A DNA stretch of 1,133 nt, from NCBI RefSeq assembly GCF_003334405.1, contig NZ_QOWM01000047.1; one strand, given 5' to 3'. Below are positions 1 through 1,133 of the stretch, piece after piece. Source of the stretch: Escherichia coli (GTDB lineage: Bacteria; Pseudomonadota; Gammaproteobacteria; Enterobacterales; Enterobacteriaceae). A program made the position numbers and the translations under genes. Under the pieces are notes generated by a model, which made no database searches, was not told where the DNA came from, and worked only from the letters and a program-made list of their open reading frames with translations. Within the stretch, counting starts at the first letter, position 1. The number at the start of each line of letters is the position of its first letter.

Positions 1-1133
1 AAAAACTGGATCGACAAAGAAGAATATCCGCAATCCGCAGCCATCGACCTGCGTTGCGTAAATATGGTTGCCGATCTGTGGCATGCGCCTGCGCCGAAAA
101 ATGGTCAGGCCGTTGGCACCAACACCATTGGTTCTTCCGAGGCCTGTATGCTCGGCGGGATGGCGATGAAATGGCGTTGGCGCAAGCGTATGGAAGCTGC
201 AGGCAAACCAACGGATAAACCAAACCTGGTGTGCGGTCCGGTACAAATCTGCTGGCATAAATTCGCCCGCTACTGGGATGTGGAGCTGCGTGAGATCCCT
301 ATGCGCCCCGGTCAGTTGTTTATGGACCCGAAACGCATGATTGAAGCCTGTGACGAAAACACCATCGGCGTGGTGCCGACTTTCGGCGTGACCTACACCG
401 GTAACTATGAGTTCCCACAACCGCTGCACGATGCGCTGGATAAATTCCAGGCCGACACCGGTATCGACATCGACATGCACATCGACGCTGCCAGCGGTGG
501 CTTCCTGGCACCGTTCGTCGCCCCGGATATCGTCTGGGACTTCCGCCTGCCGCGTGTGAAATCGATCAGTGCTTCAGGCCATAAATTCGGTCTGGCTCCG
601 CTGGGCTGCGGCTGGGTTATCTGGCGTGACGAAGAAGCGCTGCCGCAGGAACTGGTGTTCAACGTTGACTACCTGGGTGGTCAAATTGGTACTTTTGCCA
701 TCAACTTCTCCCGCCCGGCGGGTCAGGTAATTGCACAGTACTATGAATTCCTGCGCCTCGGTCGTGAAGGCTATACCAAAGTACAGAACGCCTCTTACCA
801 GGTTGCCGCTTATCTGGCGGATGAAATCGCCAAACTGGGGCCGTATGAGTTCATCTGTACGGGTCGCCCGGACGAAGGCATCCCGGCGGTTTGCTTCAAA
901 CTGAAAGATGGTGAAGATCCGGGATACACCCTGTACGACCTCTCTGAACGTCTGCGTCTGCGCGGCTGGCAGGTTCCGGCCTTCACTCTCGGCGGTGAAG
1001 CCACCGACATCGTGGTGATGCGCATTATGTGTCGTCGCGGCTTCGAAATGGACTTTGCTGAACTGTTGCTGGAAGACTACAAAGCCTCCCTGAAATATCT
1101 CAGCGATCACCCGAAACTGCAGGGTATTGCCCA
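1..1133 (+). CDS. gadB: Glutamate decarboxylase (PLP-dependent, group II decarboxylase family), internal fragment truncated at both ends; about residues 82-458 of the 466-aa GadA/GadB protein
   Basis: Frame 1 on the + strand is open across the whole window (377 codons, no stops). The translation matches the E. coli GadA/GadB sequence as I recall it, including the SxSGHK PLP-lysine motif (codons at 568-585), the IDIDMHID segment (463-486) and the C-terminal region [17 protein letters not shown] (1081-1131). Codon usage (CTG, CCG, GGT, CGT, AAA rich) is typical of E. coli. GadA and GadB differ almost only in the N-terminal residues, which are outside this window, so the gadB symbol is a guess between two paralogs. 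Confidence 0.96.
568..585 (+). other. PLP-binding active-site motif S-A-S-G-H-K; the Schiff-base lysine codon AAA is at 583-585 (Lys276 in GadB numbering)
   Basis: Direct translation of 568-585 gives SASGHK. An S-x-x-x-H-K motif carrying the pyridoxal-phosphate lysine is characteristic of group II PLP decarboxylases. The residue number follows from window codon 1 being Lys82. Confidence 0.85.

Follow-up and report, generated by a model that had tools for sequence, protein, structure and literature searches.

The window, the whole 1,133-nucleotide stretch of Escherichia coli DNA that we analysed, is almost certainly an internal fragment of gadA, the gene of the AR2 glutamate decarboxylase, and consists of the core that is homogenised with gadB by gene conversion. 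This is a textbook gene and an ordinary one, fully explained and already known, whose product has been crystallised and assayed, and the window is no longer a candidate for an undescribed system. Its wider interest is confined to the fact that it coincides with a long near-exact gadA/gadB repeat kept by gene conversion, which has itself been published. The original prediction, made from the sequence alone, is supported and is hereby refined in two respects: in K-12 the gene is gadA rather than gadB, and the window is the core homogenised by gene conversion, a known phenomenon.

Reading frame, identity and protein family

The original prediction had held that a single stop-free frame crosses the whole window and that its product is GadA/GadB. 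The results show that frame +1 (window nt 1-1131) has no stop among its 377 codons, and that the remaining five frames contain 9, 19, 14, 11 and 1 stops. Neither a start nor a stop of frame +1 lies inside the window, which is thus wholly intragenic. The frame extends past both edges and, because it runs off both ends, has no entry in the mechanically produced list of open reading frames.

In MG1655 the window corresponds to nt 244-1376 of the 1401-nt coding sequence of gadA (b3517), with 100% DNA identity over 1133 nt, and mapping to ER1709 placed it at the same gadA coding positions. It covers codons 82-458 of 466 together with two bases of codon 459, that is, about 81% of gadA, taken from its middle. 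Annotated gadA genes in many complete E. coli genomes, among the matches listed, are likewise 100% identical at the DNA level. At the protein level, a phmmer search of the PDB found the translation identical to residues 82-458 at 377 of 377 positions (E=1.4e-269); the chains with this complete identity include 1xey (GadA) as well as 1pmm and 2dgk (GadB), the last being an N-terminally truncated form of GadB. Identity near 100% over 377 amino acids to the E. coli enzymes had been anticipated, and 100% was found.

Family assignment gave the same answer. The predicted match to the pyridoxal-dependent decarboxylase domain was obtained with PF00282 (Pyridoxal_deC; E=4e-99, 332.3 bits), covering model positions 66-375 of 375. 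The NCBIfam equivalog for glutamate decarboxylase, TIGR01788, scored 597.9 bits (E=9.8e-180) over profile positions 67-430 of 431, with 377 of the 466 residues present, against a curated cut-off of 380.4 bits. Membership of another PLP decarboxylase family was considered and rejected: the models for MfnA, for histidine decarboxylase and for PanP each remained far under their own cut-offs. Among PDB chains, glutamate decarboxylases of other organisms (about 380 bits) were followed by sphingosine-1-phosphate lyases at no more than 80 bits. The best match was to Gad itself and not to a different PLP decarboxylase family, and identity did not fall below 80%, the two outcomes that the original prediction had named as counting against it. 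The protein also carries the S-x-H-K motif of the group II PLP-dependent decarboxylases, with Lys276 in ASGHKFGLA and His275 before it, and Asp86, the signature residue of bacterial Gad, is encoded at window nt 13-15. The window protein is the type member of the glutamate decarboxylase family.

Residue n corresponds to window nt 3(n-82)+1, and the features of the window are the following.

1..1133, plus strand: internal part of gadA, codons 82-458 and 2 nt of codon 459 (open frame, DNA and protein identity)
1..795, plus strand: residues 82-346, which make up most of the PLP-binding domain, 58-346 (limits from PMC12961736)
1-906, plus strand: match to PF00282, query residues 1-302 (Pfam)
13..15, plus strand: codon of Asp86, a residue that binds the substrate gamma-carboxylate and comes from the neighbouring subunit of the functional dimer (role from PMC12961736)
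399, 456 and 936 (coding nt 642, 699 and 1179), plus strand: synonymous C/T sites that tell gadA from gadB in K-12, with C in gadA and T in gadB at 399 (MG1655 comparison)
574..576, plus strand: the sole TCA codon, Ser273, whose reverse complement is the single stop of the antisense frame (codon count)
583..585, plus strand: codon of Lys276, the lysine that forms the Schiff base with PLP; motif S-G-H-K-F (role from PMC12961736)
655..696, plus strand: beta-hairpin, residues 300-313 (residue mapping; role from PMC12961736)
796..1131, plus strand: most of the C-terminal domain, residues 347-458 (limits from PMC12961736)
End of 796..1131, plus strand: beginning of the C-tail plug (452-466), with 7 of its 15 residues (PMC12961736)

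The residues Lys276, His275, Asp243, Thr212, Ser126 and Asp86 are all encoded within the window. His465 lies beyond it by 7 codons and is encoded in both gadA and gadB of MG1655 (...QQNSFKHT). The window likewise lacks the N-terminal residues, those that refold when the pH is acid (PMC12961736).

The gene is present throughout the species. A megablast search against 5426 complete E. coli genomes returned a match in all 5426 (median 2 places per genome). Identity at the best place was at least 99% in 3266 records and lay between 95 and 99% in 2166. Loci that match exactly lie in the arrangement ccp-gadA-gadX-gadW-mdtFE of the acid fitness island, which is the context of the identical copies, and gadB adjoins gadC, with gadB upstream.

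Several observations accompany this survey. Some E. coli genomes hold up to 10 places that match the window. Plasmid records account for six matching places, one of them a 50-nt fragment that ends a 3.7-kb record (NZ_AP027522.1 3672-3721). In E. coli TUM10008 (NZ_CP135658.1), gadA (locus nt 2258-4435) is split by IS1A, with the transposase at 2553-3250; the element sits just within the 5' edge of the region equivalent to the window, and both halves of gadA are annotated as pseudogene fragments.

Assignment to gadA and concerted evolution with gadB

The choice between gadA and gadB is the sole ambiguity in the identification, as the window contains no flanks that would fix the locus. GadA and GadB differ at five residues (3, 5, 6, 9 and 22), all of them upstream of the window, and are identical over residues 82-458. 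The fragment could accordingly come from gadB, the copy of the gadBC operon, the more so as the K-12 copies differ at only 3 of the 1133 DNA sites and gene conversion shuffles core sequence between both loci. We consider this origin unlikely. Compared with MG1655, the window shows no mismatch to gadA and three to gadB, all of them synonymous C/T differences, and among the matches listed the 100% identical ones that have a specific gene name are gadA or lie in the ccp-gadA-gadX context. The window is thus gadA in a K-12-like genome, an assignment that depends on three sites which gene conversion can move between loci. In divergent E. coli lineages such as O157:H7 17B6-2 (98.4%), the copy nearest the window is, among the matches listed, annotated as gadB; because of gene conversion, core sequence does not reliably track the locus across strains.

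The distribution of differences along the two K-12 genes marks the extent of this core. They differ at 31 nucleotides, with 26 in coding nt 1-243, 3 in nt 244-1376 and the others at nt 1377 and 1395, and the uneven spread between the first 243 nt and the 1133-nt window is significant (Fisher P=2e-17). The window edges fall one base inside the paralog differences at coding nt 243 and 1377. The window is the maximal near-identical repeat shared by gadA and gadB, which suggests that it was picked as an intragenomic repeat.

We compared the two loci across the genus, locating them in species-representative genomes by a degenerate DNA pattern for a 14-residue protein stretch. Loci were retrieved from E. 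albertii, E. coli E69, E. whittamii, Escherichia sp. MOD1-EC7003 and Escherichia sp. E1V33, and copies were assigned by their downstream gene, gadX for gadA and gadC for gadB. The E. whittamii copies, with 119 nt of gad each, were left out. Because several loci are truncated inside gad, the comparison of five species (K-12, E. albertii, E69, MOD1-EC7003 and E1V33) was restricted to coding nt 584-1376, or 793 sites; gad is full-length only in K-12, E. albertii and one E69 copy.

Within one genome, gadA and gadB differ at 3, 4, 6, 9 and 13 of the 793 sites, as against 34-83 differences between gad copies of different species. The two genes group by genome and not by locus in 5 of the 5 species compared. 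Over the full window region, copies from K-12 and E. albertii differ from each other at 96-99 positions, and the within-genome pairs at 3 and 5. The paralogs stay distinct in the first 243 nt, where the K-12 pair differs at 26 sites and the E. albertii pair at 20, the latter mostly at nt 6-64. This pattern is genus-wide concerted evolution by recurrent gene conversion, and it has already been published: PMC10362622 lists as its ref. 32 the work of Bergholz et al. 2007 (Mol Biol Evol 24:2323) on gadA/gadB gene conversion, which we cite by way of that paper.

The same near-identity of the core, maintained by gene conversion, is the reason why draft assemblies break inside gad. Draft Escherichia contigs start or stop within the gene at coding nt 1283, 179, 442 and 94, which would be expected of assemblers that collapse the near-identical core, and 454 assemblies of K-12 likewise break at gadA/gadB (PMC3045373). 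Scans based on repeats or on assemblies probably flag the window because of this long near-exact gadA/gadB repeat.

One of the retrieved loci is anomalous. The gadB copy of MOD1-EC7003 (locus ~10302-10180, coding nt 559-626) has an in-frame stop, E200*, and six differences from its own gadA are clustered within 70 nt of the end of the locus. This may be either poor sequence at the contig end or a real pseudogene.

Search for further elements in the window

We also assessed whether the coding sequence overlaps a non-coding element such as an sRNA, a riboswitch-like structure, an internal promoter or a recombination signal. Rfam returned no match on either strand of the window, even at E<=1. Promoter-like sites in the window numbered 0, compared with 0.8 expected, and Chi sites were absent from it with 1 mismatch allowed, so that their proposed role as conversion signals was dismissed. 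Nothing spoke positively for an embedded element; the minus strand carries two terminator-like hairpins, no more than chance would give (1.0 +/- 0.9 expected). The repeats found, a 12-nt direct repeat in two copies (392-403 and 452-463) and a 14-nt palindrome (654-673), both lie in coding sequence, and they were not taken as meaningful elements, since short repeats of this kind are often chance matches.

Variation among three Escherichia lineages tells of constraint on the protein. Selection is purifying: third codon positions account for 127 of the 136 variable sites, and for every 78-101 nucleotide changes between lineages only 3-7 amino acids change. No significant trough in synonymous variation was detected: the lowest 30-codon window had 5 variable third positions where 10.1 were expected (P=0.03, uncorrected for the 70 windows), and the three lineages share no invariant run longer than 12, close to the permutation mean of 12.6. 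With the Rfam, promoter, terminator, repeat, Chi and synonymous-constraint tests all negative, a non-coding element overlapping the gene is very improbable. We attach similarly little credence to the idea that the homogenised gadA/gadB core holds an unrecognised cis-element, be it a transcript, internal or antisense, or a signal that sets the boundaries of the conversion tract (coding nt ~243 and ~1377).

A second gene could in principle lie antisense to gad, in frame -3, where a 178-aa open reading frame occupies 574-1110 on the minus strand. This frame has 1 stop in 377 codons, compared with 11-14 in the other minus-strand frames and 9.75 predicted from the codon usage of neighbouring genes. 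However, a stop in this frame requires a sense TTA, CTA or TCA codon, and these occur 0, 0 and 1 times in the window; CTG alone makes up 24 of its 31 leucine codons. The strong codon bias of gadA, with few TTA, CTA and TCA codons, is the reason why the frame is nearly free of stops. Between K-12 and E. albertii, moreover, the antisense reading accumulates 90 amino-acid changes and the sense reading 7; the lone stop has moved, from window nt 576 in K-12 to 318 in E. albertii; and no promoter-like site is present on either strand. We therefore rejected the antisense gene, which is not conserved as coding and has next to no chance of being real, as a by-product of codon bias. The claim that gadA accounts for the entire window thus withstood the Rfam, promoter and terminator, repeat, antisense-frame and synonymous-constraint tests, in which nothing else was found.

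Enzymatic function and comparison with known enzymes

Gad and the antiporter GadC cooperate in glutamate-dependent acid resistance. As the enzyme of AR2, GadA would convert L-glutamate to GABA and CO2 with the consumption of one cytoplasmic proton per turnover, and GadC, encoded beside the paralog gadB, would swap GABA for fresh glutamate. PLP would be bound as a Schiff base to Lys276, and the distal carboxylate of the substrate by Asp86 from the adjacent subunit. The enzyme would be active only below about pH 5.5, its C-terminal tail plugging the active site at higher pH. Recurrent gene conversion within the genome keeps the gadA core near-identical to the gadB core.

The enzymology and the pH switch in this scheme come from the literature on the identical full-length protein, and would apply to the window product by virtue of that identity. 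E. coli Gad is a PLP-dependent homohexamer, a trimer of dimers, which converts L-glutamate to GABA and uses up one proton per cycle (PMC12961736). Its activity peaks at pH 4-5 and can no longer be detected from pH 6 upwards; it is auto-inhibited by the C-tail, and chloride is an allosteric activator (PMC12961736). Above about pH 5.5, His465 and Lys276-PLP form a substituted aldamine and the active site is shut (PMC12961736). Experiments on the identical protein have established that it converts glutamate to GABA with an acidic pH optimum (PMC12961736).

Among known systems, K-12 GadA (b3517, NP_417974.1; PDB 1XEY) is identical in DNA and in protein and has the context of the exact matches, ccp-gadA-gadX; there is no difference from it, and the window merely comes without codons 1-81, codons 460-466 and the stop. 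K-12 GadB (b1493, NP_416010.1; PDB 1PMM, 1PMO, 2DGK) is identical over residues 82-458, has 99.7% identical DNA and is alike in its enzymology, but differs at the three synonymous sites and occupies a separate locus upstream of gadC. Other bacterial and plant glutamate decarboxylases (PDB 7x4y, 5gp4 and 3hbx, among others) have the fold and the PF00282/TIGR01788 assignment in common with the window protein (E about 1e-109 to 1e-113), but score about 370-380 bits where the E. coli enzymes reach 897 bits, and so are clearly further away.
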